Source: a bacterium
GTDB taxonomy: Bacteria > Hinthialibacterota > Hinthialibacteria > OLB16
Length of the DNA: 64,000 nt
Assembly (NCBI GenBank): GCA_022072055.1
Contig: JAJVIK010000008.1
Location: forward strand, 40,111 to 104,110
Reading direction: 5' to 3'
The stretch's first letter is position 1. Every line of letters begins with the position of its first letter. The notes under the pieces were generated by a model. That model saw nothing but the letters and a program-made list of their open reading frames with translations. It was not told the origin of the DNA and did no database searches. Shown here piece after piece: positions 14,245 to 42,092 of this stretch. The translations under genes were made by a program, and so were the position numbers.

Positions 14245-14260
14245 GAGCATTCCCTCCCCT

Positions 14261-22724: not shown

Positions 22725-25700
22725 TTACTGCTGAGGGCTGGGCCTGACGATCTCCAGGTCGCGGGCCACATCGAAGCCGAAGAAGGGCGCGTCGTGGATC
22801 TTCGGCGCTTGGCCGCCGGTGTGGACTCCCCCGAAGCCATCGAGGACATACAGGCCGATAACCGCCCCGACCTCATCGATCGAGAGCTCCAAGTCACGCG
22901 CGATGTTGAATCCGAAGAACGGCACGCCGCGGGTGGTGTCCGCGACAAAGTCGCCATCGGTGATTCCTCCGGTGACAATCTGCCCGAACTTCGAGAGCAC
23001 AAAGGCCCCCTCGACCGCCAGCGTGGACGGATTCTTCACCAGTTCGATGTCGATGAAGACATCCTCATCCGGCAGGAACGGCGGAGGCGGAACAATCGCC
23101 GGGGCCGCGCCGAGGTTGGAGACTCCGCCTCGGCCATCCAGGATGTAACCGCCCTTCACGGTCCCATCCGGCTGGTAGTAGAGCTCCAGGTCGCGCGCAA
23201 GGTCGCCGCCGAGGGCCACGCCGATCAGCGGATCGGCCCCGCCGAAGGTGTAGATGCTCCCCGCGCCATCCAGCATGTAGACCCCCACCTTCGGACCGGG
23301 CTGAGTCGGAGACACCTCGATGTCCTTGGCGTAATCGCCCGAGAACGGGGTGAACCCAGTCTGGTCGACCGGTAGGACATCACCAAGGCCCGCAATCTGG
23401 CCGGTCCCGGTCATCCGGTAGAAGCCGGTCGGGGAGGCGGTGAATTCGGGCAGGGCCGGATCGCCGACCACGAAGCCGGTGTCCAGAGCGCCATTGGCGC
23501 GATAGAAGCCCGGCTCGAGGTCACGCGCCACGCCATCCGGGAGGAAGGTCGGTTGGAGCGAATCCGCCACCCCCTCCAGGCCGTTCCGCATGGTGACCCC
23601 ACCGAAGGCGTCGAGGACCGCGTAAGTCACGATCTCCACCGAGATCGGGACAATGGCGCTCTTGTTGCCGGCGAGGTCGACGGAGCGGACATAGACCGTG
23701 TCCCGCCGATCCGGGAACAGGTATGCGCCGCTGATCACATCCGGCTGCCTGAGGAGAGGTCCGATGTTGACCGCGTCCCAGGCTCCGTTGTCATCCGAGT
23801 AGAAGTTCCCGAACACCAGGACCGCGTTCAGATCGGCGGAGACCAGAACCCGCGAATGCCCCTCCACCGCGCGGTTCATGCCGATGATGTAGGCGTCGGT
23901 TTGCGGGTTCTGGGAGACCACGTAGATCTTGGTCGGATCCGGGTTGGGAATCGCGACATCCAGCGGGAGGCGCGCGGGCTGGGATTCGTTACCGAACTCA
24001 TCCTCGGCGGTGAACCAGACTGCGGCCGTGCCCACAACCGCGGGCGGATTCACCGAGTTGTCGGCGTGATTGTCGCCGATTGAGGTCTCCGGGAAGGAGC
24101 CTGGGGTCGGCACGCTGTTGAAGCCGCCGGCCGGGACCAGGATCGGGAAGCCGGGCAGCTCGCTGTTGAGGGAAGGCTCGTTGTAAGCGTGGAGCCACAG
24201 GTCCTCCTCGCCCTGACCAACCGCGCCGCGACGCCCGCGAACGGTGTCGTTGAACGCCCGTCCGCGCTCCACCAGGACAAACTCATCCAGGTTCGGAGTG
24301 GCCGGCGGCACTCGGTCGGCGGTGTCGATTTCGACGATCTCGCTAACATTGCCGTGCTCGTCAATGGCGACCACATAGCTGATCGGAGCGCCCACGCGTC
24401 CGACATCGATGGCCTGGAACGCTCCCGACCCATCCGAGAAGGCCACGCCAAGCAGCGGAGTCCCAAGGATCGAGTTGGTGAAGTCCAGAACCGAAGTGCT
24501 GAACTGGATGGTGCAGTTCGACGGAACCGCGCCCTCGATGCCCCGGATGGTGTTGTGATTCGGGTTGTCGGCGTTGAAGAGGATCCGCTCGGCATCCGGA
24601 GTCGCGATCGAGATGTCAAAGGTGAGGCTCACCGCGGTCGACCGATTGCAGGCCGAATCCTCAGCCACCAGGTACATGCGTTCGAATCCGGCCAAGTTCG
24701 CACCGACTTGGAAGTTGAAGCCGAGGGTCGAGGCGCTCCAACCGCCGGTGGCGTTGGCGAGCTCGATCGGCGAATACCCGCCGCCGACCTCAAGCAACAG
24801 GTCGGGATCGGCGAACAGGCGCACGCGAGCGGTGTCCTCCGGATCCACCGCGCCGGGGAGGCCCTCGATCAGGTCTTCGCCCGTTCCGAGCTGGTGAAGA
24901 ACCACGTTCTGGAGGTCAACCGGCGGCGGCGGAACGAGGTCGTTGACCGACCTGCCGTTTTCGCCATCCAGTACGAGCGGCGGCCCGAAGTTGAAGGCCG
25001 CGTCGCTGCACGCGATCCACAGAACCTCATACAGGTCATCCCCGATCGAGACCGGACCGAAGGCGCCGCTGGCGTCCGCGACGGTCGTGGCCACAAGCTG
25101 GGTCAGATCGAAGTCGGAGTAAATCTCCACGGTGCAGTTCGGTTCCACCGCTCCCGGAAGACCCACAACCTGGTCATCCGAGCCGGGGCAGGCCGACAGG
25201 ACTTCCACCAGATCTCCGACCGGAGCGTCCGGCGCGAAGATGTCGTTGAAGAGGCCGAATGGGAAGCTCAGGTTACCCGCCTCATCTTCGCTGGCGAGGA
25301 CCACGAACGGGTTCTGGTTATCACCGACTCGCAGGTCATAGAAGAAGCCCAGACGATCGGTGCGGATCGCGTTGTCCTCACGGTCGATCCGGTTGTTCAG
25401 GTAGGCGTCGGCGTACGCGCGGACGACGGTGAACGGATCCGTGAACCCGTAGATCGTGTCCTCGACTCCGGGCGGATTCTGGACCACGGCCACCGCGAGG
25501 AATTGCGGGCCGACCACGTCGTTGATCGCGGAAGCGATCACGTTCGAGGTGTTCCCCGCCTTATCAACGGCGCAAGCCAGGACCTCCTGGACCTTGTTGT
25601 CGCCGATTCGGACGCCCTCGATTCGGAAATCGTCACCCGGCACTCGCTGGGCAAGGATGCGGGCGGTCGGCGGGATCTGGACTCCGACGCCCGTATCCAC

Positions 25701-28700
25701 CAGGACGCTTGAGCGGCGATTGGCCTGATACATGAGAATCGTCCCATTCTCCACCGAGGCGGTGACCAAGCGACCGTAGGTGTCGATCACCGGACCCACC
25801 ATGGTGGCGGCGGGTTCGAGGAGACTGGCCTGAGCCAGCACCAGCGCGCCGTCGGTCCCCGGACGGAGCTCGGAGACGCGCTGAGGCACGATCCGTTCGC
25901 CGAGGAAGTCGAGTCCGGTCTCGCCGAAGTGCAGGCCGCCGCGACGGTCGAGGGCGAGACCCGCGGGTTCGGCCAGGTTGACCAGGACCAGGTTCAGGGT
26001 GGAGGTGGTCAAGTCAAACGAGAACACCTGACCGCTGAACGGATTCCCCGGAGTCGCAAGCAGCGAGATATAGAGGGTGGACACGCCATCAAAGGCCAGC
26101 CCACGTCCCTGCTCGGTGATGCCCGCGAGCAGCGGGGTCAGCGTGGCGAGCGCCGTGTCGTAGGCGAACACCTGGGCGCCCGATTCCGTGATGAAATACA
26201 GGACATCGGTCGCGCCGAAGGTCATGCCCGCAACCGGGGCCGGGATTGCGAAGTCGATATCCTGGAGCACCAGGCCCGTGGTGGTCATCTCGGTCAGACG
26301 GACCTGGGATGGGCTGCCCGGATTCCGGGAAGCGACCCACAGATTGCCTTGACCGAGATTGGAGACCGCCAGCCCGGTCGGCTCCACCAGACCCGTGTGG
26401 ACCGTGTTAAAGGTTCCGAACTGATCGAGACGGTAGATCACGTCATCGGCCCCCATCGCGACGCCGTCCCAGTTGCTGAAGTAGACGGAGCTTGTGGCGT
26501 CAGCCGCGAGACCGTGGAGGTTGAAGTTCGGAGCCGTGGTGAGTGTCCCCGGAGACTCGCGGTTGAGGGTCGGAGACTCGGTGAACACCTTCACGCACAC
26601 CACTTCGTCCACCTCGGCGGAGTCGATGTCGATCTGGACATCGACCTCGTCCTCAACCCTCGGGAAGGTTCCCGGCTCTTGCGGGAACTGCTCGAAGATC
26701 GAGAGTTCGGTGATCAGCGGAGCGGTGATGTCGATGTGGGCGTGAGCGGCGCCGCTGCTGTTCCCGGCGGCGTCGCAGGCGATCACATAGACAGTGTCCA
26801 GCGAACCCGGAGTGAAGCTGTTGTTGTCGCCGATATAGATCGGTCCGACACCCGGGCCGGTGACCGGAACAAGCGCGATCAGGCTGGTGAGGGCCACATC
26901 CTCGTAGACCTTGACCAGGCTGGTGTCGGCGCTGACCCAGGCGGTGAGGGTGTCATCGACGGGCACGCGCGTGCAGCCGCTTCCGATGGTGTTGTTGTGG
27001 ACGGTCACCTGCGGCTCGCCCGGTGGGGCGGTGTCGTTGCCGATTGCCAAGTCGTCGCTCTCATTGCAGGCGGCGTCCGCGACGGTCACATAGAACGTGG
27101 AGCTCAAATTGTCGCCCAAATTGAGCGTCCAGCAACCATCCGCGGCGCCATCGTCGATATCCTCGACGGAGTCGACGACGTTGAAGAGGCTATCGTCGCG
27201 GTAGACCACCACGGTGACCGCATCCGGATCGGAGGGCTTGGCGATCAGGATGTCATCCGTTCCGGGCGGATTCGAGAGAATGGTCACTTCCGCGCTGGTG
27301 AGCGGCGCGGGCGGGACAATGTCGTTCACGACGTTCACCGACGGGCTGGTGTTGCCGGAGAAGTCGGTCACAACCACCCAGACATCCTCGTAGAGGTTCG
27401 CGCCGATGGGAACCTGGAAGAAGCCGTTGCCGACGAAATCCAGCTCCGAGCCGATCAGGTCGGTTAGACCCGGGTCGGCGAAGGCCCACGCTTGGACCAC
27501 ATCCGGATCGTTCGGATCAGGGCGGACGATCACATAGTCATCCTCGTGGAAGCAGTTGGAGTCCACGGTGACAGTCGGCGTGGCGGGCGGGGTGAAGTCG
27601 TTGGCCACCGCGAACCCATTGTTGGAGATGTCCGCGACGTTGCCCCACGGATCGACACCCAGGACGACATAGCTGTAGGGCGCGCCGCCGATGGTGTCGT
27701 TATCCAGGAAGAACGTTTGCGGATCGAAGCCTCCGCCGTTGTAGAGCGAGGTCGCGGCCTTGAAGGCGACCACCTTGATGTTGTTGAAGATGGTCGCGCC
27801 TGGGGCCCAAGCCACCGGACTTTCGTCGATGTTGCGGATGGTCAGTTGGTCTCCCGAGAGGCTGTAGTTCGGGAGGTTGACCGGATCGACGGACTCGGTG
27901 GCGGATGGGATCAACCGGTTCCGCGTGGTGTCGATCACCTTGAGGAGGTCCACGTCGATGGCCGAGGTGGCCAGCGTGAGGGTGACCGTGGCCGCGTTCG
28001 GGGCGAAGCAGATCACCGGGCAAAGCGCTTCGGAGATCTTCTCGTTGTCGAAGTGGCTGAGGAACTCGATCGGGTCCCCGCCGAGGCGACGGTAAATGTC
28101 GTAGCCGGTCACGCCGACCTGATCATAGGGCGTGGAATCCCAGAACAACCCGATATCCTCGGAGAAGGGATCGGGATGCGCCTGGAGGGTCTCGATCGGC
28201 TCGGGCGGAGTCGTGTCGAAGGCCACCGCGGTGGCGTCGCCGACCAGCACGCTGGTGGAGATCAGCGAGCGATTCCCCGCCGCGTCACGCGAAACAACCG
28301 CATAAGAATAGGAGTGGCCCGGCAGCGCGGTGTGGTCCACAAAGGTGCGGTTATCGGTGAGGTAATCCACGAGCACCACATCCGTCGGCGCGGGAAGAAC
28401 GGTTCCCGTGATATCAATGGTCTCTCCGGTGGCCGCGAGGACCTGATAGGACTCGCCGGTGGTCTTGTTGAACACACGGCTCACGGATCCCACATTGAGC
28501 GGATCCATGAAGAGCACGAGCAGGTTCGGGGTGGCCGCGCTGATCGAGGCTTTTTCGGCGACCACCTGAGTCGGCTGCGGACGAAGGGTCCCGGTCGGGG
28601 TGGTCATGTCCGGAAGGATGATGTTGACCACGGTCCCGATCAGGAGGTCCGGATCGCGCACGATGTCTCCATCCGGCTCACTGACCTCGCTCTCCGCGAT

Positions 28701-31700
28701 GGGGCCGGAGCGCTGGTCGCGGAAGATCTCCCAGACCGAGATCGCGATGTTGTCGCCGGTGGGTCGGACCGGGCCGCCGCCGACCGGAACGCTCGGGATA
28801 TCCCACGAAAGCAGGATGCCGTCATCCGGCTCGCCGGCCCGGACGCGCAGGTTGGTGACCGGGTACGGATCCACCAGGTCATTCGGGGCCGCCGCGACAA
28901 TATTCGAGATGTTCCCGGCGAGACCCACGGCAAACGGCTCGCAGGCGTCATTGGTGGCGAGCGAGTTGCCGGACCAGCCGTTTCCAGCCTGGTCAAAGGC
29001 CACGATGAAGTAGGCGTAGGTCCCCTCGGGCGGGACGCTGGTGTCAAGGAACTCGGTGATCGGCTGACCGTTGCCGTCGTAGGCGCAGATCACGCCGATC
29101 AGGTCGAAGTCGGTGAACGGATTGGCGTCGAGAACATCATCCACCGTGGTTCGGGTGCGGTAGATCTCGTAGCCGATTGTTCCCACGTTATCGATGGGGA
29201 TGTACTCCCAATCGAGGCGGACATCGGGGGTGCCGAAGAGCGCCTGGGCGGTGATGATCGTCCTAGTCGGCGGGATCACGTCCAGATTGATCAGCGGCCC
29301 GAAGACCGGATCGAGGCTGTTCCCGGCGTGGTCGCGGGTGATGGTTTTCAAGTAGAAGTAGTCATCCGAGCCGGGCGTGGTCGCGGGCAGGGAGGACACA
29401 TCCCACACAAAGGTCCCGGTGGCGCAGCGAAGCGCGCTGGCCTTGGAGAGCGGGATATAGCCGCCTCCGGTCACGTCCACTATCTCGGTGGCCACATCGA
29501 TGAAGTTGCTGAAAGCAAGGAGGGCCGGGGTGGCATCCGCCGGACCCGTCGCATAGTACAGCTCCACGCTGGCCACGCCGGAGGGCGAGAAGTCGATATC
29601 CGGCTCAATGCCCGGATTGAACTCGTCGCAGGAGGTCGCTTGCGGAATGACCGGGAAGGCCAGGGTGCCGCCCAGGATGTTGGGGAGTTCGGCCAGAGTG
29701 CCGGGGAAGGCGGTGTTGAAGGCCTCGTCCCAGGCGTCCATGTTGAACATCTCGTTGCCGGTCCACACCAACGGGTTGGTGTAGGACCACAGCAAGCCGC
29801 CGCCGGTGCCGTTGGCGATGATATCCTCGGCCGGGTAATACGGGTCGGGGTCATCGGCCAGCGGAGTCTGGTTGTCGATGATGAAGCGATCGAGAAGGAC
29901 CACGGTGGTGGCGTTGGCGCAGTTGTCGGTGGCGCTCACGACGAAGTCGATGTAGGCGCTGCCGGTGGCGGGCAGGGTGAGGTTGGCGGGCGCGAAGCTC
30001 GCGGTTCCGGTCACCACGCCATTAACCGCGGGGGCGAGACTGAGCGTGAAGGTGGCGTCCGTGGCCGAGCCACCCAGCACGCTGAACAGACCGGTGAGCG
30101 TGGGCGGATCGGTGGTGACATTCAGGCCCGTGCCGAAGTCCTCAAAGCGGACGGTAAGATCCACCGTGGCCGCCGAACCGCTTGTGGCGGCGAACGGCAG
30201 CGAGGCCAAGTACGGCACGCGCGGCGCGCGGATATCCACGGTGAAAGTGATCCCACGGATCAACATGCCGGTGGCCGATTCGACATTCGGAGTCGGAACG
30301 GCGCCGTCATAGGCTTGCGAGATCACGCGAATCTGGCCTTCGCCGTCAGGCAGAATCTGGCGCAGCGTGGCCTCGGTGATCGTGGCGCAGGCGATGGCCG
30401 CCGAGGTCGGCAGGACACTGGTGTCGGGGAAGGTCAGCAAACCACGCCGGACCAAGCCGGTGGTGATGTCGGTGGCGGTGTTCACCAAGAGCGCGCTGGC
30501 GGGTCCGACTTCCACGTCGTAGGCGAACAGATCCACCCGCGACATTGGGCAGGGGGCCGTGTCGGTCACCGCCGCCGCGAGCTTGTAGGGCAAGTCGTTC
30601 AGGCAGATGGTGCAGTCATACAGGGCCGGGGCGGCCGCGACCGCGCAGACCGTGGCGCCATCCGGAATGAAGAAGGTGTTGAGCTCAAAACCCGCGTTAA
30701 AGGCGGCCTGCTCAAAGGTGGTGGCCACCTCCCGAATCACGTTGCCCATCGGCTCGATTCGACCATGGAACAGGCGGGTCCCGCTGAAGCCCATGCCGAC
30801 CGTGCGGAAGGAGGGGAGGCCGGGCGTAATGAAGTTGGTTCCGCCGGGGAAGGATTCGAAGAACCGATCCCTCGGCGGCGGCGCTCCGGCGGGATCAAAC
30901 CGTTCGGCGAAGAAGGTTCGTCCGAAGGCCCCCGAGCCGACCGCGACCACCTCAAGCTCCGCGCCCGGCAGCGGGAAGAAGGCGGGCTGAGCGCCGAGAT
31001 ACGCGCCGGTGGCCGCATCCAGCACATAGAGCTGGTCATCGCTGGCCTGCTCGTTGATGTACAGCCGGCCGCCCTCCGCGCCCATTCCGGCCACCACGGT
31101 CACGCTCGCGGGCAGAGTTAATGTGGCGGTGAGAACGATGGAACCCGGAACGCTGACGTCATAGACAAAGATGGTGTTCGCTCCGGAGGCGGAATTGGTG
31201 TCGCCGTAATAGAGCCTGTCGTTGTCATAACCAAGCGCGCAGCCGGTGGCCGAGGAGATCTCCGCCGGGAGCATCAGGCTTCCCACGACCTCCGTGTTCA
31301 AGAGGTCGCTGTGGTCCGGATCGATCTCATACAGGATGGTGCGCGAGACCGAGGCGATCTCGGTGACCGCCGCGATGAACAGGCGCGAGCAGATCGGCTG
31401 GGATTTCGGTTCAAGCGGGTCGTAGTAGAAGGTTTCGGGTGGGGAGCCGCCGAACTCGGAGTTCACGTTGGCCAGATTGATGGCGCAATCCCCCGCGGAG
31501 ACATCGATGCCGAACCAGCCTGGCTGAAGGCCAATGGCGACCGGATCGACGAGCGACGCGAGAAGGATGCCCCCCTGGTTCGGACGATCCGGCAGGGTCC
31601 CCGTGACCGATCCGATCAGCGCGCCATTCTGGTAAATCGAGGCCGCGTAAGTGCAGATCCCGGAGTCAATCCGGTAGCCCATCAGACCCGCGTCATTGGC

Positions 31701-34700
31701 GGTGAACAGGACGCCGAATAGACCATGGAAACACTCCCCGACATACGAGTTGAAGGTGAACGGATCCACCACATTGAACAGCGCCACGGCCGGATAGGTC
31801 CGGTCGATGGCATACAGGCGATTGTCCGAGGGGCCGCGAGTGATCCCATTGCAGCCGCCGAAGGCCTTGGCGCTCACCCCAAACGGGTCGCCATCACCGC
31901 AGAACGTGGCGCTGATGGGAACGTTATACGCCCACGCTCCGGAGGCATCCAAGGGGAGTCCGACCACCTGGATGGAGGTTCCCTGGAACGCGAAAGAGGG
32001 GCCGATATCGAAGGTGTCGTTAAAGATCTCCCAGTGCGACTGATCGGAGACCGAGGCCTGTGTCGGCGCGCCGGGAAGACCCGAAAGGTTGGTTTGCGCG
32101 CGCTCAAGACCATTGGTCTGGACGCCGCCGGGGACATCCCCATAGCCGGAGATGTCTTGTCCGACCACGCCGGAGTTGATGCCCACCGCGCAGTCGAAGT
32201 AGGTCACGGCATTGGTGGAGACATAATCGAGCGCGACCGCGCCGGTGTTGTAGAGCGTGATGCTGAAGGTGTTCGTGCCGAGCGTGGAGTCATCCGGGAC
32301 TGTGTCGTAGTCGATGATGAAGCGGTCGTCGTACTGACGATAGGTTGTGGTTCCACCGCTTGCTCCGGAGCCGTCGATCCGGCTCCAAAGCCCCATGATC
32401 TTGGGTGTCACCGCGTTGACCAGGGCCTGGGTCGGGACACCCGTGGAGATCGTTCCGGTTCCAAACTCGACCAGACCGCGCGCGGAGATGAACACCGAGT
32501 TCCAGCAACGGCCATAGAAGGGGAACTCGAAGCCGTTGGTGAACGGAACCTCCACGATGCTGCTGGCGTTGTGGATCATCGGGTTGAAGACATCCACCGG
32601 CGAAACCGCAGCCTCGGTGGTGGCGTCAAGCGGGGGAAGCACACTCCCACCCGGTCCGGGGTACCACAGGTCCACGCTGTCCGCGGTGGTAACCCCATCG
32701 GCGCGCAGGAAGACCACGGTTTCGTCGGTCAAGTCGTGGATCACGCTGTAGGCCTCGAACAATCCGTTGAAGACCATGTCGAATGGCCCGCCGGTGTTGA
32801 TGTCCGGCTGAATCGCGGGCGCGCCGCCGCCGGGGGAGACGCCCACGAGGAAGCCGGTCAAAGTCAGATTGCCATATTCAATGACGATGGCGCCGTTCAC
32901 ATAAAGGGTCGCGGTGGCGCTGTTGGCCCCGAAGCTAAAGAACTCTGGAACGGATTCATAACGCACAACTGCCGCGCCCGAATACAAGTCCACGGAGACA
33001 GTCCCACCGGCGCCGGGGTTGAGGTCATCCCAGAACAAGGCAATGCGTGGGAGGCCATCCTCAAACTCCACCGGCGTTTCGCTGAAATCAGCGTCTCCGC
33101 CGCCGAAGGTGATGTACCCGTTGGACCCGACATACATGTCGGAATAGGTCCCGGAGTAGAACGGGAAGTTGAACGGCAGGTTGACCTGCGTGAAGGTATC
33201 ATCACTGAGCGACAAGGCTGATGTGGAGATAAACGCGCCCAGGCTTCCCGGAACCGCCGCCGCGCCGGTGGCGTAGATCACGGATCCCGCCAACCCGGTG
33301 ATGTCCACATCGCCGTTCACGATGGCTTCGTCGTGGTCCGCGATCTGAACGGGCGGGCCATTGAGATCCACGGTCACCTGGATCGCGTCGCACTGGGTCC
33401 CGTTGCCGACTTGGTCGGTGGCAAAGGCGATAATGTCATAGACGCCATCGCCAAGCGCGGCGAAATTGACCGAGAAGGCCACGGTTTCCACCATCGCGGA
33501 CACGGCCGAAGTGCCGGAAGCGACCACACCGCCGCCGAGGTTGCGGACTTCATAGCCGACCTGGCCCGGGCAACCGCCGGTGTCCGTGGTGGTGATGATG
33601 ATGTCGGTCGCGCCGAGAACGGTGTTGGCGTAGCTGATGCACGCGCCATCCGAGGGCGCGAGAAGGGCGCACTCCGGCACGGTCGGATCCAGGACATAGA
33701 TCTCCGGAACGGCGCCGGGGTAGGTTTCGGTGACATTCGCCACATCCCGCGCGCAGTCGCGCACGACCATATTCAGGCCGAAGGGAACCAGCGAGACGAC
33801 GTTCAGGGTCACATTGCTGACAGTGGCGCTGTAGAACAGGGGACCATCATCGGGACCCCAAGGGAGGATGTCGGAGAGCGGCATCACCCCCACATAAATG
33901 TCCTCGGGGCCGATCGCGGCGACCTGCACTCCGCCCTGCCACACCTCCAGCTCCACATCGCAGATCCCGGAGTCGATCCGCCAGCCGGGAACTCCCACAT
34001 CGCTCAGGATGCCGTCGAGCTCCAGGGTCAGGTCGGAGCACCCTCCTGGAGTGACGTCCACATTCATGGTGACCGTCGGGTCGGTGACATCAAGGACATA
34101 CACCTTGTTGGTCGCGGGGCCGCGGGTGTTGGCCGTGCAGCCGCCGAATCCGAGCGCGCAAACGCTGAACGGATCGCCATCCGAACAGAAGGTCGGGCTG
34201 ATGACCAGGTTGGCCGACCAAGCGCCGGTGATCGGGTTAAAGGACCCCGGCGCGGTGAAGATCGTGCTACCCTGGAAGCCGATGACCGGGGTGACATCCA
34301 GGACGTTGGTGGCGTTGAAGACCTCATACTGGACCTTGTCGAGAACCGCGAACTGAGTGGCGGCGCCGGGAAGGCCGGAGATATCGATCGGATTCCTCAG
34401 CACCCCGTTGGTTACCAGCGGGATGGACTCATACCCATCCACCGGCTGGCCGGAAACGCCCCCAGCGACGCCGATGCCCACATTCGTGTCGGCGGCGGTG
34501 GAGAAATAGGTGATTGTGCCGTACTCGAATTGGACCGCGCCGGTGTTGTAGAGGGTGATGGTGATGTCGTTGATGTTCCCCGGCGCCCCGAGTGTTTCGG
34601 GAACGCTGTCGTAGATGACCTGGAAGCGATCATCAAACTGGCGATAGAAGGTTCCGCCGCCGAGGTGCCCGCCGATATCGGCGAAGAAGCCCATCACCTT

Positions 34701-37700
34701 GGGGGTCGGGCCGTTGACATTGGCGGGAGTGGGGGCGAAGACGCTGAGCGCGGCGGTGGTGTTCTGGCCGAACTCGAGAAACCCGTGGTTGCTGACCACC
34801 ACGGAGTTCCAGCACTTGCCGAAGAAGGGGAACTCAAAACCGTTGGTGAAGGCGATTTCGATCCCTTGATCCGGTCCGCCGAGCGGATTGAATCCGACCG
34901 AAACCGGAGCCACGGCCGCTTCGACAGCCGGGGGCAGCGGGGGCAGCACATCGCCGTTGGGGCCCGGGTACCCGATGAGAACCGAGGTCGCGCCGGAGGT
35001 CCCAACCAGGTCGTTCTGTGGGAGGAAGGCAATCGACAGGTTGTCCAGATCGGCGGGGTTGCCGAGCGTCGTGAAGATTTCATAGCTGCCGGTGGCGCTC
35101 ATGGTGACCGGGCTGGCGGCGCTGATGTCCACCGCGCTCACCGGACCCCCGAAGCCGGGGGCCACTCCGGCAAGGCCATCCGTGCTGTTCATCCCCTCGT
35201 ACTCGAACAGGATCGCGCCGGTGGAATACAGGGTCACTCGGAAGGTGTTCTGGTCCATGATCCCAAACTGCGGGACATTGATCCAGCGGATGATGAGCCT
35301 ATCGGCTTGTTGTTCGGAGGTGATGGAGCCCGCCGCGGCCGGGTTGAAGTCGTCCCAGAAGGGCGCGATGCGCGGAACTCCGTTGGTGAACTCCGCCACG
35401 GACTCGGTCGGGTCGGGGTCGCCGTTCTGGAAGGTCAGGTTGCCGTTCGAGTTGACCCACACGCTGTCATAGAGCACGCCGAAGAACGGGAAGGCGAACG
35501 AGCCGCTGAAGTTGACCTCGACCGAATCGTCATCCCCCGGCGTGAGGGCCGACTGACCGGCCGGAGTCCCCGGTCCCGGAAGCCCGGAGCTCCCGGAGGA
35601 GAAGGTCGGGACCGTGGAGAAGCCGTTGACCGAGAGGTTGTCGTTCACAATCGCTCGGAACGGATTGTTGATGGTGGTGAGCGGGCCGGTGGTGCGAACC
35701 GTGAAGGTGATCTGGTCGCACTGGCCGCCGTTGCCGACTTCGTCCGTGGCCTGGGAGATGAGGGTGTAGGTTCCATCGCCCAATCCGACCACGTTTTCGC
35801 TGAAGGTGAAGGTCGCGCTGGTCCCGGAAACGCCGACCGTGGCTGAGGCCACCACCGCGTTCAGGCTGTTGAGGATCCGGTAGCCGATCGCCGCGAGGCC
35901 GGAGCCGAGATCGGTGGCCGAGATGGTGATGTCGGTGGCCCCGAGCACGGTGTTATCGAAGCTGAAGCAGACTCCATCCTCGGGGGCATCGATCGAACAG
36001 GTCGGGGCGGTGAGGTCCACGATGACCTCGAAGGTCACGCAGCAGATGTTGGCGGTTCCGGTGGCGCCATCCACCAGGCAGACATTGATGTCGGACACAT
36101 CTCCATCCCCGAGGCCGTAGGCCGTCGGGTCGAAAGGCGAATTGATCGGAGTGCTCCCGAGCGCGGGCGGATCGGAGGTGAAGAGAACATCCGTGGCTCC
36201 GGTCAGCAAGGCCGTGGCGTTGGCGGCGGTCACCCCCGTGTCGAAGGATGAGGAGGCGTCGTCATCCCCCAAGGTCGCGGAAAGAACCAATCCGGCGGCC
36301 CCCACAAAGACACTGGAGCCCGCGGTCGGGAATCCGAGAACCGCGCACGAGGAAGTGTCGTCCACAAAATAGTTTTCGGTGTCGCTGCCCTGCAGGTTGG
36401 CGGCATCCACCGCGTAAGCGGTAACCGAAAAAATCTCGTCATCCGAAAGCAGCGGATCGACCGGGATCACGGCGCTCCAATTCACATTGAACGCGCCGGG
36501 GTTGTCCACGGTCGCCACCACGACCGAGGTTCCGCTGTCGGTGGTGTATTCCACGGTCACCGCCTGAACCCCGGAGCCGAGGTCGGAGGCGGTCCCCGAA
36601 AGCAGGAAGCTCACGTTCACTCCCACATTGGGCGGAAGCGGGCTGGTGATGTCCACCACGGGCGGAACGGTGTCCACTCGGACCACGACGGAATCGCAGA
36701 CCGTGGCGTTCCCGACCGTGTCCGTGGAGCTCATGATCAAGGTGTACAAGCCATCCGCGCCCGGATTGACCAAACCGGTGACCTGGGTCACCCCGCAGAT
36801 GGTGGTCACTCCGACCACTTCCACGCAGGATTCCAGGACACCCGCCGCGCCCACATCCGTGGCTTGGCCGATAATCGAGATGGCGGTGACCACATCCCCG
36901 GAGGCGGGAGAGATCAGGCTGCAAATCGGCGGCTCATAGTCCGCGGTGACCGTGGCCGAGGCCCCGAAACACTCGTTACCCACGTCAACCGCCCCGTCTC
37001 GAGCCTCGATCGTGATAATCGATGTTTCCCCGTGGTTCAGATTGAAGTCCAGGGTGGGGAGGATATGGATACCACCCAAGGCGGGCGGAGGACCGGATGT
37101 GTAAACCTCAGTCGCCCCGTTCAATAGAGCGGTCAAAGTGACTTGGTTGATCCCGGCGTTGCAGGCCCCGAGGAAATCATCATCGTCGGCGGAAACGATG
37201 AAGGCGCCGCCCCCGGGACCGAAAACCGAGGGCGCGCTGATGAAGGCGATCGGGCACAAGTTGTCCACGCAGAAGCAGGATGTGGCGACTCCGACCAGGC
37301 CACAGTCATCCAGCGCCTCCACGGTCACGTACAAAATTTCATCGTCCGCGAAGAGCGGATCCACCGGAACAACGCCGGTCCAAGCCGAGGTTCCCGAGGC
37401 CAGAACAAAACCGGACCCCGTGCTGGTGGAATAGTTGACCGTCACGCTCACGATGGTGGCGTTGGCGTCCACTGCGGTTCCCGACAGGGCGAACTGGACG
37501 TTCACGGGCGTGTTCTTGGTGGGAGAGTCCACCGTCACCGTGGCGGGAGTGTTATCGATCCGAATGGTGAAATCGGGCCCCGCGCCCGGGTCTCCGGATC
37601 CGGTTTCCAGGCTGTTGCCGTTATAGTCGGCGGCGGTCGCGGAGTAAGTGTACAGCCCATCCGGCAAGGTGGTTGTGTCGAACGAGACTTGAGCCGTTCC

Positions 37701-39107
37701 GGTGCCGGGGCCGACGGTCACGTTGGAGGCGACCCCGATGGTGTTTCCATTGAGTTCAAAGGTCACGGTCTGAATCCCGCCGCCGGCGGGGGAATCATCC
37801 GAGACTGTCGCGCTGAAGATGACCGTGCCGTTGACCTTGGCCCCATCGGCCGGCGTCGCCAGCTCGATCAGGTCGGGCGGCAGGATGTCCGTGGTGAGGA
37901 GCGAGACCGAGTTCGAGACGCACGAGGTCCGGTTGTTGTCGGTGACCAGGACGATGCCGTAGGTGTAGGTCACGTTGTTGAGACGTGGAAGGGTCGGATT
38001 GGAGGGGGTGTGGTAATAGATGATCGTGTCGTTCGAGGTTCCCGAGGAGTAATTGATCGAATCAATCAGGAAAGAAGACCCCAGGTTCGAGGAGTCGATC
38101 AGCGCGCCGTCATCGCGCGCGTACACGCGAACCACGGCGGGGGTGACATCGCCGGGGTCGCTGACCAGCGACAGGGTGTTCATGGTGAAGCTCACGCAAT
38201 TCACGGGGACCCCCGCGAGGAGGAGTTGCGCGGCGGCCACGTCATCCGGCGGGGTGACCGCCGAGGCGCGCTGGTTTGAGGAAAGGGGCGAACCGCCGCT
38301 CTGATTCCCCACCGTGTCCTGGATGCGGATGCCGTACGCAAGGGCCGTCCCGGCGGGCGCCGGGTCGGTGTAGGTCGTGGAGTTATCCCGGTCGTAGGGG
38401 AAGATCTCCTGGGTGGTGACGATGTTCCCGGGGACCGGGTCGGAGGTCAGGTCGAAGGCTTCGGATTGGGCCACTCGGTAGAGGATGAAATCGAAGCGAT
38501 AGTTGGCGCTGGGAGAGGCGAACTGGCGAACCGGGTGGAGGACCGGGTTCGAACCAGAGTCGCCGACTTCATCGTTCGGATTGACAAAGGCGACATCGAC
38601 ATTGCCGGTCCCATCGCTGCAAGTCAGCGTGAACTGGTTGATTCCCATCGTGGAGGGCGGGTTGGCGTCCGCCACCGCCCCTTGGATGCTGGAGGGAACA
38701 TCGCCGCCGATCCCGACCTCCTTGGCCCGGACCAGGTACCAGTATTCGCCCGCGCTGACCGTGGTCGTGCCCGCGTTGAATCCATTGGCCACGTTGGTGG
38801 CCTCAAGTCCCGTATTCACCAGGGTCGTGGGAGCGCCGTCGTTCACAGGGATATTGGAACCGATCAGCGTTCCCGCGGTGAAGGCTCCGATGACCGGCAT
38901 CACGGAGGAGCTGATCCGATACACATCCACTGAGAGCGCGCCCGCGGCTGTGTTGGAGACCGTGAAATTCAAGCTCACGATCCCCCCCGGCCCCGGCACG
39001 GTCGTGAGGTCGGTGTTGAAGACCACCGCGGAGGCGCGCGGCGCGCACACTCCCGCGAGGATGGTGAAGATCGCACCAAGGGTAAACGCTGAACGCAGCC
39101 GGGACAT
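22725..39107 (-). CDS. Giant secreted multidomain repeat protein (5460 aa): Ig-like, FN3-like, beta-propeller and NIDO-like domains, C-terminal repeat array
   Basis: Single uninterrupted 16.4 kb ORF. Start assigned to the ATG preceded by AAAGGAGG (6 nt spacer), giving signal peptide MSRLRSAFTLGAIFTILAGVCAPRASA. Thr/Gly/Asp/Val-rich and Lys-poor. Confidence 0.85.
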   Translation of the reverse strand: MSRLRSAFTLGAIFTILAGVCAPRASAVVFNTDLTTVPGPGGIVSLNFTVSNTAAGALSVDVYRISSSVMPVIGAFTAGTLIGSNIPVNDGAPTTLVNTGLEATNVANGFNAGTTTVSAGEYWYLVRAKEVGIGGDVPSSIQGAVADANPPSTMGINQFTLTCSDGTGNVDVAFVNPNDEVGDSGSNPVLHPVRQFASPSANYRFDFILYRVAQSEAFDLTSDPVPGNIVTTQEIFPYDRDNSTTYTDPAPAGTALAYGIRIQDTVGNQSGGSPLSSNQRASAVTPPDDVAAAQLLLAGVPVNCVSFTMNTLSLVSDPGDVTPAVVRVYARDDGALIDSSNLGSSFLIDSINYSSGTSNDTIIYYHTPSNPTLPRLNNVTYTYGIVLVTDNNRTSCVSNSVSLLTTDILPPDLIELATPADGAKVNGTVIFSATVSDDSPAGGGIQTVTFELNGNTIGVASNVTVGPGTGTAQVSFDTTTLPDGLYTYSATAADYNGNSLETGSGDPGAGPDFTIRIDNTPATVTVDSPTKNTPVNVQFALSGTAVDANATIVSVTVNYSTSTGSGFVLASGTSAWTGVVPVDPLFADDEILYVTVEALDDCGLVGVATSCFCVDNLCPIAFISAPSVFGPGGGAFIVSADDDDFLGACNAGINQVTLTALLNGATEVYTSGPPPALGGIHILPTLDFNLNHGETSIITIEARDGAVDVGNECFGASATVTADYEPPICSLISPASGDVVTAISIIGQATDVGAAGVLESCVEVVGVTTICGVTQVTGLVNPGADGLYTLIMSSTDTVGNATVCDSVVVRVDTVPPVVDITSPLPPNVGVNVSFLLSGTASDLGSGVQAVTVEYTTDSGTSVVVATVDNPGAFNVNWSAVIPVDPLLSDDEIFSVTAYAVDAANLQGSDTENYFVDDTSSCAVLGFPTAGSSVFVGAAGLVLSATLGDDDASSSFDTGVTAANATALLTGATDVLFTSDPPALGSTPINSPFDPTAYGLGDGDVSDINVCLVDGATGTANICCVTFEVIVDLTAPTCSIDAPEDGVCFSFDNTVLGATDITISATDLGSGLAAIGYRILNSLNAVVASATVGVSGTSATFTFSENVVGLGDGTYTLISQATDEVGNGGQCDQITFTVRTTGPLTTINNPFRAIVNDNLSVNGFSTVPTFSSGSSGLPGPGTPAGQSALTPGDDDSVEVNFSGSFAFPFFGVLYDSVWVNSNGNLTFQNGDPDPTESVAEFTNGVPRIAPFWDDFNPAAAGSITSEQQADRLIIRWINVPQFGIMDQNTFRVTLYSTGAILFEYEGMNSTDGLAGVAPGFGGPVSAVDISAASPVTMSATGSYEIFTTLGNPADLDNLSIAFLPQNDLVGTSGATSVLIGYPGPNGDVLPPLPPAVEAAVAPVSVGFNPLGGPDQGIEIAFTNGFEFPFFGKCWNSVVVSNHGFLEFGQNTTAALSVFAPTPANVNGPTPKVMGFFADIGGHLGGGTFYRQFDDRFQVIYDSVPETLGAPGNINDITITLYNTGAVQFEYGTITYFSTAADTNVGIGVAGGVSGQPVDGYESIPLVTNGVLRNPIDISGLPGAATQFAVLDKVQYEVFNATNVLDVTPVIGFQGSTIFTAPGSFNPITGAWSANLVISPTFCSDGDPFSVCALGFGGCTANTRGPATNKVYVLDVTDPTVTMNVDVTPGGCSDLTLELDGILSDVGVPGWRIDSGICDVELEVWQGGVQVAAIGPEDIYVGVMPLSDILPWGPDDGPLFYSATVSNVTLNVVSLVPFGLNMVVRDCARDVANVTETYPGAVPEIYVLDPTVPECALLAPSDGACISYANTVLGATDIIITTTDTGGCPGQVGYEVRNLGGGVVASGTSAVSAMVETVAFSVNFAALGDGVYDIIAFATDQVGNGTQCDAIQVTVDLNGPPVQIADHDEAIVNGDVDITGLAGSVIYATGAAAVPGSLGAFISTSALSLSDDTFTQVNLPFNFPFYSGTYSDMYVGSNGYITFGGGDADFSETPVEFEDGLPRIALFWDDLNPGAGGTVSVDLYSGAAVVRYESVPEFFSFGANSATATLYVNGAIVIEYGNLTLTGFLVGVSPGGGAPAIQPDINTGGPFDMVFNGLFEAYSVIHDLTDETVVFLRADGVTTADSVDLWYPGPGGSVLPPLDATTEAAVSPVDVFNPMIHNASSIVEVPFTNGFEFPFYGRCWNSVFISARGLVEFGTGTISTGVPTQALVNAVTPKIMGLWSRIDGSGASGGTTTYRQYDDRFIIDYDTVPDDSTLGTNTFSITLYNTGAVALDYVSTNAVTYFDCAVGINSGVVGQDISGYGDVPGGVQTNGLERAQTNLSGLPGAPTQASVSDQSHWEIFNDTFDIGPSFAFQGTSIQVVGLPLDASGAWAYNVPISATFCGDGDPFGVSAKAFGGCNGITRGPSDNRLYAIDRTYPAVALFNVVDPFTFNSYVGECFHGLFGVLFTANDAGLMGYRIDSGICTYAASIYQNGALIGSVTGTLPDRPNQGGILLASLVDPVAIGLQPGWFGIDVSAGDCAINLANVNSEFGGSPPETFYYDPLEPKSQPICSRLFIAAVTEIASVSRTILYEIDPDHSDLLNTEVVGSLMLPAEISSATGCALGYDNDRLYYGDTNSASGANTIFVYDVSVPGSIVLTATLTLPASVTVVAGMGAEGGRLYINEQASDDQLYVLDAATGAYLGAQPAFFPLPGAELEVVAVGSGAFGRTFFAERFDPAGAPPPRDRFFESFPGGTNFITPGLPSFRTVGMGFSGTRLFHGRIEPMGNVIREVATTFEQAAFNAGFELNTFFIPDGATVCAVAAAPALYDCTICLNDLPYKLAAAVTDTAPCPMSRVDLFAYDVEVGPASALLVNTATDITTGLVRRGLLTFPDTSVLPTSAAIACATITEATLRQILPDGEGQIRVISQAYDGAVPTPNVESATGMLIRGITFTVDIRAPRVPYLASLPFAATSGSAATVDLTVRFEDFGTGLNVTTDPPTLTGLFSVLGGSATDATFTLSLAPAVNGVVTGTASFAPANLTLPATGSAYIDFVVSATDNCANATTVVLLDRFIIDNQTPLADDPDPYYPAEDIIANGTGGGLLWSYTNPLVWTGNEMFNMDAWDEAFNTAFPGTLAELPNILGGTLAFPVIPQATSCDEFNPGIEPDIDFSPSGVASVELYYATGPADATPALLAFSNFIDVATEIVDVTGGGYIPLSKASALRCATGTFVWDVSSLPATTPGSDDYFYLKTITRDHAGNSLDPVFGPLINLDVIPPTRTIITAQALFGTPDVRLDWEYIPIDNVGTIGYEIYRTRTTVDDVLDANPFTDFDLIGVICAYDGNGQPITEFLDTSVPPEGTYAYFIVAFDQAGNGWSGNSLATNDACEPFAVGLAGNISNIVAAAPNDLVDPYPVTNLRVRAGEPDDGILLSWDIPSVPVGGGPVRPTGDNIAISVWEIFRDQRSGPIAESEVSEPDGDIVRDPDLLIGTVVNIILPDMTTPTGTLRPQPTQVVAEKASISAATPNLLVLFMDPLNVGSVSRVFNKTTGESYQVLAATGETIDITGTVLPAPTDVVLVDYLTDNRTFVDHTALPGHSYSYAVVSRDAAGNRSLISTSVLVGDATAVAFDTTPPEPIETLQAHPDPFSEDIGLFWDSTPYDQVGVTGYDIYRRLGGDPIEFLSHFDNEKISEALCPVICFAPNAATVTLTLATSAIDVDLLKVIDTTRNRLIPSATESVDPVNLPNYSLSGDQLTIRNIDESPVAWAPGATIFNNIKVVAFKAATSLYNGGGFDPQTFFLDNDTIGGAPYSYVVLGVDPWGNVADISNNGFAVANDFTPPATPTVTVDSNCFHEDDYVIVRPDPNDPDVVQAWAFADPGLTDLIGSELDFVGNGFFQVPIGANLYEDVWVVVTDFSGNTSPSVNVVNDIVPPAPLTSAEVTILSNPPGTDDILIAKPSDPDAVTVVVYRDDSLFNVVDSVEDIDDGAADGCWTLNLGDNLSSTFYVTVADAACNESDDLAIGNDTAPPGEPQVTVHNNTIGSGCTRVPVDDTLTAWVSADTSLVKVYEDVALTSLIALVPVTGPGVGPIYIGDNNSFTPGSLDTVYVIACDAAGNSSGAAHAHIDITAPLITELSIFEQFPQEPGTFPRVEDEVDVQIDIDSAEVDEVVCVKVFTESPTLNRESPGTLTTAPNFNLHGLAADATSSVYFSNWDGVAMGADDVIYRLDQFGTFNTVHTGLVEPTGLAVSNLGQGNLWVASRNPGSPSQVRLTEMTTTGLVLQDIDFAIPAPVAGMTFGATDVLYFITESGAQVFAYDTALATLTPLLAGITEQGRGLAFDGVSTLYISLLATPGNPFSGQVFSFDLTTSTLNLVLVNLAEPAGLALDRRGGLHFGETGLDFLGERIVPQRVSELRPGTDGALVLAQASLLEPAATMVGPVIDTYGRLVTASVENGTILMYQANRRSSVLVDTGVGVQIPPTARILAQRVPGDDFRIEGVRIGDNKVQEVLACAVDKAGNTSNVIASAINDVVGPQFLAVAVVQNPPGVEDTIYGFTDPFTVVRAYADAYLNNRIDREDNAIRTDRLGFFYDLRVGDNQNPFVVLASEDEAGNLSFPFGLFNDIFAPDAPVGDLVEVLSACPGSDDQVVGLPGAVEPNCTVEIYSDFDLTQLVATTVADASGAFGPVSIGDDLYEVLWIACSDAAFNFGPPLVLDGENGRSVNDLVPPPPVDLQNVVLHQLGTGEDLIEGLPGAVDPEDTARVRLFADPDLLLEVGGGYSPIELANATGGWSASTLGFNFQVGANLAGFERMYLVAEDSACNRSTAVSLTFDISIATPDAERILFNADNPNHNTIRGIEGAVPSNCTIQFSTSVLDFTNSILGTPLLGVAFSDGSGAFQAIDVGRVGAPISYVVAIDEHGNVSEIVEIDTADRVPPATPNLDEFVLVERGRAFNDTVRGRRGAVGQGEEDLWLHAYNEPSLNSELPGFPILVPAGGFNSVPTPGSFPETSIGDNHADNSVNPPAVVGTAAVWFTAEDEFGNESQPARLPLDVAIPNPDPTKIYVVSQNPQTDAYIIGMNRAVEGHSRVLVSADLNAVLVFGNFYSDDNGAWDAVNIGPLLRQPDVISGAYLFPDRRDTVYVRSVDLAGNKSAIVPISVEIVTYAVLDAFGGVTMRNGLEGVADSLQPTFLPDGVARDLEPGFYRANGALDTGFVVGDPALPEFTASPTGFYRMTGTGQIAGLGDVLPVDQTGFTPFSGDYAKDIEVSPTQPGPKVGVYMLDGAGSIYTFGGADPLIGVALGGDLARDLELYYQPDGTVKGGYILDGRGGVSNLGAAPAIVPPPPFLPDEDVFIDIELVKNPSTLAVEGAFVLSKFGQIVTGGITDGDFVADTTRGVPFFGFNIARDLELSIDEVGAVIGLYVLDGFGGVHTGGQAPKIHDAPFFGFDVARDLEIVRPSPQQ
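22728..23640 (-). repeat. C-terminal array of about 6 degenerate 45-65 aa repeats (motif A-R-D-L-E-L ... G-x-Y-V-LDG-x-G-G-V) ending the giant protein
   Basis: Repeated ARDLELYYQPDGTVKGGYILDGRGGV, ARDLELSIDEVGAVIGLYVLDGFGGVHTGG, AKDIEVSPTQPGPKVGVYMLDGAGSIYTFGG. Protein ends inside a truncated unit FFGFDVARDLEIVRPSPQQ. Confidence 0.55.
30880..35560 (-). repeat. Diverged tandem duplication (2 x about 2.3 kb, about 770 aa each) inside the giant gene, each copy carrying two NIDO-like domains
   Basis: Copy 1: FAFPFFGVLYDSVWVNSNGNLTFQNG (about 35500) and FTNGFEFPFFGKCWNSVVVSNHGFLEF (about 34850). Copy 2: FNFPFYSGTYSDMYVGSNGYITFGGG (about 33170) and FTNGFEFPFYGRCWNSVFISARGLVEF (about 32545). Period about 2305-2330 nt. 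Confidence 0.7.
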
Positions 39108-39304
39108 GGCTTGCCTCCTTTGACTCATGTTCGGACCGCTTGAGTTATTCACAGGGGGTGTTGAAAACAAGGTGGGCGCGGCAATACAACAGTGACCAGA
39201 CACAGCTCGTCTCCTTCGATTCGAACCAAATCCCTCTTCCTCGCATTGACGCGCGGAAGAACCCCATCCCAGAACAACGGCAAAGAAAGGACACTGATCA
39301 GCGC

Positions 39305-39337
39305 GATGCTACGCCAAGCCCCCTCGGTGTGTCAACG
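39305..39337 (-). promoter_or_regulatory. Candidate sigma70-like promoter for the giant gene (TTGACA-18 nt-TAGCAT)
   Basis: Minus strand gTTGACAcaccgagggggcttggcgTAGCATcg, about 200 nt upstream of the start, inside a 520 nt intergenic region with AT-rich patches. Confidence 0.3.
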
Positions 39338-39725
39338 GTTAGATACCGGGCCTCAGTCGAAAAAACCGAAAGAACACATGGAAGTGCGAATCCTGATGGG
39401 AGGCTCTTTTCTGACATTGTTGCGCACGCTTTCACCGGCCACGGATCTCCATTTGGGCTTATCGGCGTGGGGCCTGAACGACTGAAGTGAGAATTCAGAA
39501 TGGGCGGAAAGGGGAAAAAACTTGTCATTTTGCGGACTAAATCTGCAAGAACCATCATGTCTGGCACGCTTTCTGCTAAAAACGGCCCCCTTTTTCCTAT
39601 TGACAGGCTTGAGGCTGGGACGGAAACTTCCGGGTCGCCATGGGGTGGCCGCCGGGGAGAGCTGGGTCCTCTCGGATGGGGACCCGCCGGGGGTCAAGAA
39701 GGGCGGCTGAGAGGAGGAGGCTGGA

Positions 39726-40361
39726 ATGAGTTTGAGGGTGAAGATTTGCGGGATCACGCGACGCGAGGACGCCGAGGCGGCGCTCGCCGGCGGCGCGGAT
39801 GCCATCGGCTTCGTTTTCCATCCGGAATCAAAGCGCTATATTGATGTTCAGGCGGCCCGGGAGATCACGGCGGGGCTTCCCCCCTTTGGTCTGCGGGTCG
39901 GGGTGTTTGTCGAACCGACCTTCCAGGCAGTGATCGAGGCCGCCAAGGCCATCCATCTGGACACCATCCAGCTCCATGGGGCGGAGCCTCCCGAGATCGC
40001 CGAGGACCTCCGCGCCGAGGGGTTGCGGGTTTGGAAGGCGGTTCGCGTCGACGGCCGGGAGTCGCTCCGGGTCTATGAGGATTACCCCTGTGACGCTTTG
40101 GTCCTGGATGCCTTCGACCCCGCCCGTCCGGGCGGGACCGGTCAGACCTTCGATTGGGGCGTCGTGGCGGGCTGGAGTCCCCCGGTTCCCTGGATCCTTT
40201 CGGGGGGCTTGACCGCGGACAACCTGGGGGAGGCGCTCCAGATGCTTACCCCCTGCGGAGTGGATGTCTCCAGCGGCGTGGAATCGAGTCCCGGAGTCAA
40301 GGATCACGACCTGGTCCGGGCTTTCCTTCAGCGAGCGAAGCAGGAACTGGTGCCCGCATAG
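39726..40361 (+). CDS. trpF: Phosphoribosylanthranilate isomerase
   Basis: MSLRVKICGITRREDAEAALAGGADAIGFVF... is a canonical TrpF N-terminus. 211 aa. GAGGAGG RBS. Confidence 0.85.
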   Translation: MSLRVKICGITRREDAEAALAGGADAIGFVFHPESKRYIDVQAAREITAGLPPFGLRVGVFVEPTFQAVIEAAKAIHLDTIQLHGAEPPEIAEDLRAEGLRVWKAVRVDGRESLRVYEDYPCDALVLDAFDPARPGGTGQTFDWGVVAGWSPPVPWILSGGLTADNLGEALQMLTPCGVDVSSGVESSPGVKDHDLVRAFLQRAKQELVPA

Positions 40362-40380
40362 AAATCTGGTAAGATGGGAG

Positions 40381-40401
40381 GGTTGAGGTTTGGTCTCAAC
40401 C
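40381..40401 (+). promoter_or_regulatory. Stem-loop between trpF and the radical SAM gene
   Basis: ggttgag-gtttggt-ctcaacc, perfect 7 bp stem, 20 nt before the downstream ATG. No U-tract. Confidence 0.3.
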
Positions 40402-40421
40402 CGGATGGAAAGGTTGGCTTA

Positions 40422-42068: not shown

Positions 42069-42092
42069 GGGGCCTCCCTTCCCCGTTTTTCC
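42069..42092 (+). terminator. Weak intrinsic terminator candidate after the radical SAM gene
   Basis: GGGG-cctccctt-CCCC then gTTTTT. Only a 4 bp GC stem, but followed by a T5 run. Confidence 0.3.

Follow-up and report, generated by a model that had tools for sequence, protein, structure and literature searches.

A tandem duplicated cassette of remote NIDO-like domains in a giant modular protein of a Hinthialibacterota bacterium

The NIDO domain (PF06119) is known from animal extracellular proteins such as nidogen-1 and nidogen-2, alpha-tectorin, MUC4 and SNED1, in which it occurs together with AMOP, VWD or EGF domains. In this work, we analysed a 64,000-nucleotide stretch of contig JAJVIK010000008.1 (positions 40,111 to 104,110; assembly GCA_022072055.1) from an uncultured bacterium of the lineage Hinthialibacterota, referred to below as the window, in which one giant gene on the minus strand encodes four NIDO-like domains, designated A1, B1, A2 and B2. 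These domains are likewise found in an extracellular context and have the motif order of animal NIDO, GDD...FxFPF[FY]G...VxxNG.[IL].F...[IV]APFWxDx...G.VYY...W..V...NTFQ..L...G...F.Y. Unlike animal NIDO, however, they sit between bacterial immunoglobulin-like (Ig-like) modules, they are shorter (~150-165 amino acids (aa) against the 186 profile positions of animal-type NIDO), and SNG and APFWDD are degraded in the B-type copies. The locus adds a new and divergent member to a prokaryotic NIDO-like family that is abundant but unstudied, and its carrier is an ordinary kind of giant modular surface protein.

In the bacterial and archaeal NIDO-like family, multiple domain copies in very large secreted proteins are typical, and the window protein follows this pattern, although it lacks the T9SS (type IX secretion system), PEP-CTERM or dockerin sorting modules of many members. 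The alternating pairing of a canonical (A) and a divergent (B) domain within a larger duplicated cassette is specific to the ortholog group of the window protein. The closest described systems of another kind are the giant adhesins, namely the Big-domain and Ca-tandemer fibres of the SiiE, LapA and MpIBP class, and the giant proteins of Omnitrophota. The window protein resembles them in its Sec signal peptide, its thousands of beta-sandwich residues, its acidic composition, its internal tandem duplications and a copy number that changes among orthologs. Unlike the giant adhesins, it has no RTX or type I secretion system (T1SS) signal, no LPXTG and no other recognised anchor, and its Ca_tandemer match is sub-threshold (16.6 vs 50 bits). 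With 5.5 thousand aa it is also far smaller than the Omnitrophota giants, which were described as >30-147 thousand aa in two papers, neither of which mentions NIDO (10.1101/2023.11.21.568195; 10.64898/2026.06.07.730766).

The duplicated cassette in the giant protein

The region makes up the central part of one gene, whose product is built almost entirely of beta-sandwich modules (Table 1). All eight peptide motifs quoted by the initial annotation, which gave no strand, were recovered verbatim in one minus-strand reading frame, an open reading frame (ORF) of 5,492 codons. Matching motifs of the two copies are offset by 775, 775, 775 and 769 aa, corresponding to 2325 and 2307 nt, in agreement with the proposed A-B-A-B period of about 2305-2330 nt. 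Long plus-strand ORFs over the same region (e.g. 27492-31121 and 33333-35846) were dismissed as artefacts on the antisense strand of a GC-rich gene (63% GC), because all homology and domain evidence sits on the minus strand.

The duplication was examined by self-BLAST, in which 200-aa chunks were compared with the whole giant protein. A single collinear diagonal was found, leading from aa 1039-1845 onto 1810-2601, with offsets of 762-776 aa along 800 aa and E values from 1e-13 to 8e-50. Global alignment of the two units, which have lengths of 771 and 792 aa, gave 44.3% identity over 731 aligned positions and a score of 1386, compared with 28 +/- 10 for shuffled sequences (z ~135). At the DNA level, identity over the aligned codons was 55.8%, and at third positions it was 47.6%, near saturation. 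The duplication is therefore genuine and old and did not arise as an artefact of assembly. The diverged supermodule of about 770 aa predicted by the initial annotation is thus real, and its identity of 45-50%, judged by eye, was essentially right, if slightly high. The block itself was misplaced by ~500 nt, as it occupies 31401-36089 instead of 30880-35560.

Each unit consists of an Ig-like module (Big), an A domain, a B domain and a third region named C, with identities between the two copies of 42%, 39%, 53% and 39%, respectively. The A and B segments are homologous to each other at 29-35% identity (hhalign 99.2%, E 2.9e-19). Big1 matched Pfam Big_13 at 25.1 bits (aa 1128-1169), below the cut-off of 27. 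The C regions contain conserved Cys together with the motifs FCxDGDPF, FGGC..TRGP and RIDSGIC, which are common to all orthologs (L005 and P0089, described below), and had no match in Pfam or NCBIfam. An AlphaFold2 (AF2) model of this region, computed from a 4-sequence alignment, was of low confidence and unusable (predicted local distance difference test score, pLDDT, 46.5).

Remote homology to NIDO and spread of the family

Formal membership of Pfam NIDO fails, since no segment reaches the gathering cut-off of 25 bits. The resemblance proposed by the initial annotation was borderline in this search: A1 (23.1 bits, E 8.5e-5) and A2 (17.3 bits, E 0.0049) gave sub-threshold hits, as did an 851-aa piece of the giant protein (22.7 bits), and B1 and B2 had no match at E <= 10. 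Nor was the whole model covered, as HMMER aligned only positions 1-55 of the 186; hhalign stretched the alignment to 106-138 columns. The probable cause of these fragmentary HMMER matches is an extra stretch of ~25 residues that animal NIDO has between the G.VYY and ..TW strands and that the bacterial domains lack.

For comparison with bona fide animal NIDO, the NIDO regions of human nidogen-1 and human alpha-tectorin were used as queries only after validation with Pfam. The nidogen-1 query matched Pfam NIDO with 205.6 bits over positions 2-186 and retrieved real database entries, among them Nidogen-1 from Myotis and one sequence with 98% identity; the alpha-tectorin query scored 224.4 bits over positions 2-185. 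In hhalign, the bacterial family profile matched the alpha-tectorin NIDO (98.8%, E 1.2e-16, 121 columns) and an alignment of vertebrate nidogen NIDO (95.9% probability, E 5.4e-9), in the same register for the two animal types. BLASTP against the alpha-tectorin NIDO gave 39.7 bits for A1 (E 7.5e-9, 170 columns), 36.6 bits for B1 (E 7.7e-8), 35.0 bits for A2 (E 2.9e-7) and 26.6 bits for B2 (E 1.8e-4), and the best of 500 shuffles reached 26.2 bits; the B2 score is marginal alone, but B2 is 53% identical to B1. The identity of A1 to animal NIDO is ~25%. Against nidogen the signal was lower, with E 0.6 (not significant) for A1 and nidogen-1 NIDO by BLASTP and E 0.003 and 0.006 for profiles built from the window segments alone. 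Nidogen's own NIDO lacks the FPFFG motif, and the alpha-tectorin type is the informative comparator.

The hidden Markov model (HMM) of the bacterial family scored 155.4 bits for A1, 143.1 for A2, 103.2 for B1 and 101.9 for B2 over HMM positions ~3-159, values that are inflated by the inclusion of the four segments in the profile; as an independent check, an HMM made from the segments only found 13 outside proteins at 52-136 bits. Within the family alignment, 39 of the 47 domain sequences matched Pfam NIDO (E <= 0.01), and it was the sole family matched. For the A1-B1 unit, the relatives found in databases are bacterial proteins from metagenomes, and several of them pass the NIDO cut-off, namely P0001 (46.1 bits), P0002 (Halobacillus, 32.4), P0006 (27.9) and P0010 (27.8). 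An AF2 model of A1 gave a beta-sandwich with a pLDDT of 91.6. Based on these profile and alignment comparisons, we assign A1, B1, A2 and B2 to the NIDO superfamily as remote relatives only, and in this form the relationship suggested by the initial annotation is supported.

The initial annotation regarded NIDO as essentially metazoan and rare in bacteria. This belief is contradicted by a search of the family profile against 1.84 billion cluster representatives (50%-identity clusters), which returned 47,868 matches at E <= 1e-3, 35,303 at 1e-10 and 6,935 at 1e-30, counts in which eukaryotes and prokaryotes are taken together. The top matches are proteins of 0.5-5.6 thousand aa with 3-25 domain copies each. 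Of ten representatives that were sampled, nine exceed the cut-off of Pfam NIDO (28-86 bits) and carry bacterial partner domains, for example a T9SS sorting tail, CarboxypepD_reg or He_PIG; among other relatives, PEP-CTERM, dockerin, PKD, PPC, TIG or RTX-type repeats occur. A genome scan located the family in metagenome-assembled genomes (MAGs) labelled Planctomycetota, Proteobacteria, Cyclobacteriaceae, Anaerolineae, Eisenbacteria, Gracilibacteria, Rickettsiales and Fimbriimonadales, so that by MAG labels the spread covers at least 8 bacterial phyla, and one relative comes from a Lokiarchaeota MAG. Scans of metagenome contigs found no relative. The B type escapes detection by Pfam and was seen only in the ortholog group of the window protein.

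That bacterial NIDO is poorly characterised was borne out, as our literature searches on it found nothing relevant and the relatives are named 'hypothetical protein' in their source annotations. The only match to the sequence of a solved structure was to the N-terminal residues 52-192 of a RemA-type gliding-adhesin homologue of Flavobacterium johnsoniae (8gl6 chain D, deposited as RemA, E 2.4e-23). Since only the C-terminal domain of the substrate is resolved in 8gl6 (PMC10994853), there is no experimental structure of a NIDO-like domain.

Two other accounts of the NIDO likeness have to be weighed against common descent within a prokaryotic family. The segments could be an unrelated bacterial beta-sandwich family that resembles NIDO by coincidence or convergence, and the sub-threshold Pfam scores over 55 of 186 positions, the missing B1 and B2 matches and the poor nidogen values would fit such a reading. 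However, agreement in register with two animal NIDO types, an A1 alignment with alpha-tectorin above the shuffle maximum and the exclusive match of most relatives to NIDO have largely refuted this account on the sequence comparisons, and we consider it very improbable. The domains might instead have been acquired recently and horizontally from an animal, given that the A type and alpha-tectorin-type NIDO have FPFFG, NSNG and APFWDD in common. Against this stand the low identity to animal NIDO, the nesting of the A type in a huge prokaryotic family (the 35,303 representatives, the many bacterial phyla and the archaeon mentioned above), the bacterial nature of the closest relatives of the window A-type domains (40-51% identity) and the lack of the animal insert in the bacterial form. 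A recent animal origin is hence scarcely credible to us.

Orthologs, further repeats and genomic neighbourhood

Two whole-protein orthologs were found, P0089 and L005 (the latter from an uncultured-bacterium MAG; its protein is L005p). The window protein and P0089 (5,642 aa) are collinear and 53-55% identical; P0089 has A-B-A-B at matching positions as well as a fifth, A-type domain at aa 3722-3893. In the window protein, which has no such domain there, the corresponding insertion site falls between aa 3735 and 3749 (window ~27957-28000). Window A2 is 57% identical to this extra copy and 45% to its positional counterpart, a pattern that suggests domain shuffling or gene conversion. The L005 ortholog (44-49% identity) has one NIDO-like domain of B type, sharing 51% identity with B2, 45% with B1 and 37-40% with A1 and A2. 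Its Ig-like module is nearer to Big1, and its B and C parts are nearer to B2 and C2.

In a neighbour-joining (NJ) tree, A1 and B1 each paired with their P0089 counterparts (bootstrap 100 each), and so did B2 (92). The pairing of window and P0089 domains places the cassette duplication, as read from the tree, before the split from the lineage of this 53% identical ortholog. The A clade clustered (bootstrap 100) with NIDO-like domains from bacterial proteins that are otherwise unrelated, and only members of the giant-protein family made up the B clade (100); A and B are therefore not recent copies of each other. The L005 B domain was sister to the B2 clade (bootstrap 70). The presence of just one domain in L005 is probably the result of one internal deletion of A1-B1-C1-Big2-A2, a pattern that unequal rates could mimic. 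Copy number within the ortholog group is therefore 1 (L005), 4 (window) or 5 (P0089), and such variation is usual for large modular surface proteins.

The long ORF begins with a GTG, and we regard the downstream ATG at 39107 as the likely start of the gene. An AAGGAGG Shine-Dalgarno sequence lies 7 nt 5' of this ATG, and the N-termini of L005p and P0089 align from the Met that it encodes, which makes a real product of ~5,460 aa probable. The predicted signal peptide has, by eye, a basic N-region, a hydrophobic core and an A-x-A site, and it is conserved in L005p and P0089. The mature protein is strongly acidic, with abundant V, G, A, T and D and very scarce K (0.6%). In the whole-protein Pfam scan, only the Ig-like families Big_3_3 (28.4 bits), Big_13 and Big_6 were matched in addition to sub-threshold NIDO, and there was no match in aa 2600-4000 nor in the C-terminal 325 aa. 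The NCBIfam scan gave only sub-threshold Ig-like and OmpL47-type matches and no sorting signal.

Further repeats were observed along the giant protein. The C-terminus is formed by five to six repeats of ~45-50 aa with the signature Y.LDG.GG[VI]...G followed by [AV][RK]D[LI]E (e.g. LDGFGGV ... ARDLE), which are kept in P0089 and have no Pfam match; they might form the module for anchoring or cell-wall binding that the protein otherwise lacks. A second, older internal duplication consists of ~305-aa modules (offsets 301-316 aa, 33-37% identity, E down to 9e-25), whose Ig-like ends resemble the Big part of the NIDO cassette. Diverged repeats of ~90-100 aa (24-32% identity, E 1e-6 to 1e-10), with offsets near multiples of 90-105 aa, occupy a third region, for which one Big_6 match suggests an array of Ig-like domains.

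The giant gene is flanked upstream by trpF and a B12/radical-SAM gene, both divergent from it. The product of trpF has an identical counterpart at NCBI, a protein from a MAG labelled 'Candidatus Omnitrophica bacterium'. On the downstream side, the same strand carries a gene for a SurA-like periplasmic peptidyl-prolyl isomerase (PPIase) with its own signal peptide. Between the giant gene and the PPIase gene, directly behind the stop codon of the former, we found a 15-bp GC-rich hairpin with a weak T-rich tail, possibly a terminator or attenuator. Operon coupling with the SurA-like gene was downgraded on this account, and co-transcription is uncertain because the terminator-like hairpin separates the genes. 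Window positions 36726-43361 are 99.91% identical to contig JABWAZ010000232.1 of the public MAG GCA_013360775.1, and the label of the near-identical MAG is Candidatus Omnitrophica. That contig stops inside the giant gene near the first NIDO-like domain, with ~1,217 aa present, and therefore neither the complete gene nor its duplication can be seen there.

Elsewhere, the window looks like ordinary chromosome, with a cluster of multiheme cytochromes, purF, and genes for a sugar kinase and a type IIG restriction-modification enzyme. In the cytochrome cluster, large multiheme proteins of the cytochrome c type are fused to membrane domains of the cytochrome b561 type (796, 944 and 535 aa) and are accompanied by a cytochrome c7-like protein and an NrfD-type membrane subunit, which suggests an extracellular or periplasmic electron-transfer module. 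The type IIG enzyme is a probable assignment for a 1,095-aa ORF with Eco57I, N6_Mtase and MmeI-type methyltransferase domains, and the adjoining ORF of 785 aa has no Pfam match.

Table 1 Positions of the giant gene, its modules and neighbouring features in the window.
Feature	Window position	Residues or extent	Strand	Basis
Giant-protein ORF	22725-39203	5,492 codons from first GTG, at 39203	minus	single unbroken reading frame
Giant gene, likely extent	22725..39107	secreted protein ~5,460 aa; ATG start at 39107	minus	
Predicted Sec signal peptide MSRLRSAFTLGAIFTILAGVCAPRASA	39027..39107	aa 33-59 of long ORF	minus	read directly from sequence
Supermodule copy 1, Big1-A1-B1-C1	33777..36089	aa 1039-1809	minus	self-BLAST diagonal, global alignment
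Big1, Ig-like module	35562..36089	aa 1039-1214	minus	sub-threshold Big_13; similarity to Big2
A1, canonical-type NIDO-like domain	35019..35558	aa 1216-1395	minus	family HMM, BLASTP, AF2 model
A1 motif FAFPFFG...	35430-35498	aa 1236	minus	
B1, divergent NIDO-like domain	34332..34895	aa 1437-1624	minus	family HMM, BLASTP
B1 motif	34770-34838	aa 1456	minus	
C1, unannotated Cys-containing all-beta region	33777..34328	aa 1626-1809	minus	similarity to C2
Supermodule copy 2, Big2-A2-B2-C2	31401..33776	aa 1810-2601	minus	self-BLAST diagonal, global alignment
Big2, Ig-like module	33237..33776	aa 1810-1989	minus	weak Big_13 and Big_3_3 matches
A2, canonical-type NIDO-like domain	32703..33227	aa 1993-2167	minus	family HMM, BLASTP
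A2 motif	33105-33173	aa 2011	minus	
B2, divergent NIDO-like domain	32025..32591	aa 2205-2393	minus	family HMM; BLASTP marginal
B2 motif	32463-32531	aa 2225	minus	
C2, counterpart of C1	31401..32018	aa 2396-2601	minus	similarity to C1
~305-aa modules	35631-37898	aa 436-1191	minus	
~90-100-aa repeats	23643-27653	aa 3851-5187	minus	
C-terminal repeats	22728-23636	aa ~5190-5492	minus	
GC-rich hairpin	22664-22696	15 bp	minus	
SurA-like PPIase gene	ATG at 22656		minus	
Multiheme cytochrome cluster	6196-15535		minus	
Probable type IIG restriction-modification enzyme	49302-52589	1,095 aa	minus	
Adjoining ORF	52649-55006	785 aa		

Proposed role and meaning of the NIDO-like cassette

Taken as a whole, the locus is best explained, and we think probably so, by a Sec-exported, acidic surface fibre or adhesin with tandem Big-A-B-C cassettes, in which the A and B domains are remotely homologous to NIDO and the duplication is old. 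In the mechanism that we propose, the Sec pathway would export the giant protein, which would form a long fibre displayed at the cell surface. Its NIDO-like domains may then bind ligands, probably glycans or surfaces, with the Ig-like modules serving as spacers between them, so that duplication of the cassette would raise reach and avidity, and domain gain and loss would tune binding. This reading is suggested by the GDD, SNG and APFWDD motifs that the family conserves, by the place of a NIDO-like domain at the tip of the RemA-type adhesin homologue, and by the secretion and anchoring signals that partner the family. As for the features of an adhesin, the signal peptide and Ig-like modules are visible, and no anchor or sorting motif was found in the Pfam and NCBIfam scans. 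For the specific claim of a surface adhesin whose NIDO-like modules are the ligand-binding elements, which we draw from context, we see a roughly even chance with a slight lean in its favour.

The same protein could also be read as purely architectural, with the NIDO-like domains and their cassette binding no ligand themselves and acting as rigid spacers of beta-sandwich type in a surface layer, a sheath or a fibre that the duplication only lengthens. In agreement with this, the protein is a row of beta-sandwich modules in which several internal duplications occurred independently, its copy number is free to vary among orthologs and its B-type domains have lost the canonical SNG and APFWDD motifs; yet the strong conservation of the acidic and aromatic motifs over tens of thousands of members suggests a conserved site, and the exposed N-terminal position of the domain in the RemA-type homologue also speaks for more than spacing. 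We therefore find an exclusively structural role rather unlikely. Participation in a glycan-degrading machine, with the NIDO-like domains as non-catalytic accessory modules or catalytic themselves, would fit the cell-wall-degrading role proposed for Omnitrophota giant proteins, and we give it only a very small chance. Beyond the preferred reading as a surface adhesin, a broader idea is that the compact prokaryotic NIDO-like domain may be the ancestor of the animal matrix NIDO and may also be a module for adhesion or glycan binding that is widespread and unrecognised, with B as a specialised, obligate partner of A; we put this forward as a tentative possibility that is less likely true than false.

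By itself, the locus is of small weight, as it adds a further example of a giant, modular and internally duplicated surface protein. What it changes is the belief that NIDO is a rarity among bacteria: secreted proteins of prokaryotes carry a NIDO-related domain in abundance, and it lies largely at or below the Pfam threshold and is unnamed in annotations. Knowing the structure and the ligand of a single bacterial member could shed light on what NIDO does in nidogen, alpha-tectorin and MUC4, and could clarify the source of the NIDO domain of the animal matrix.

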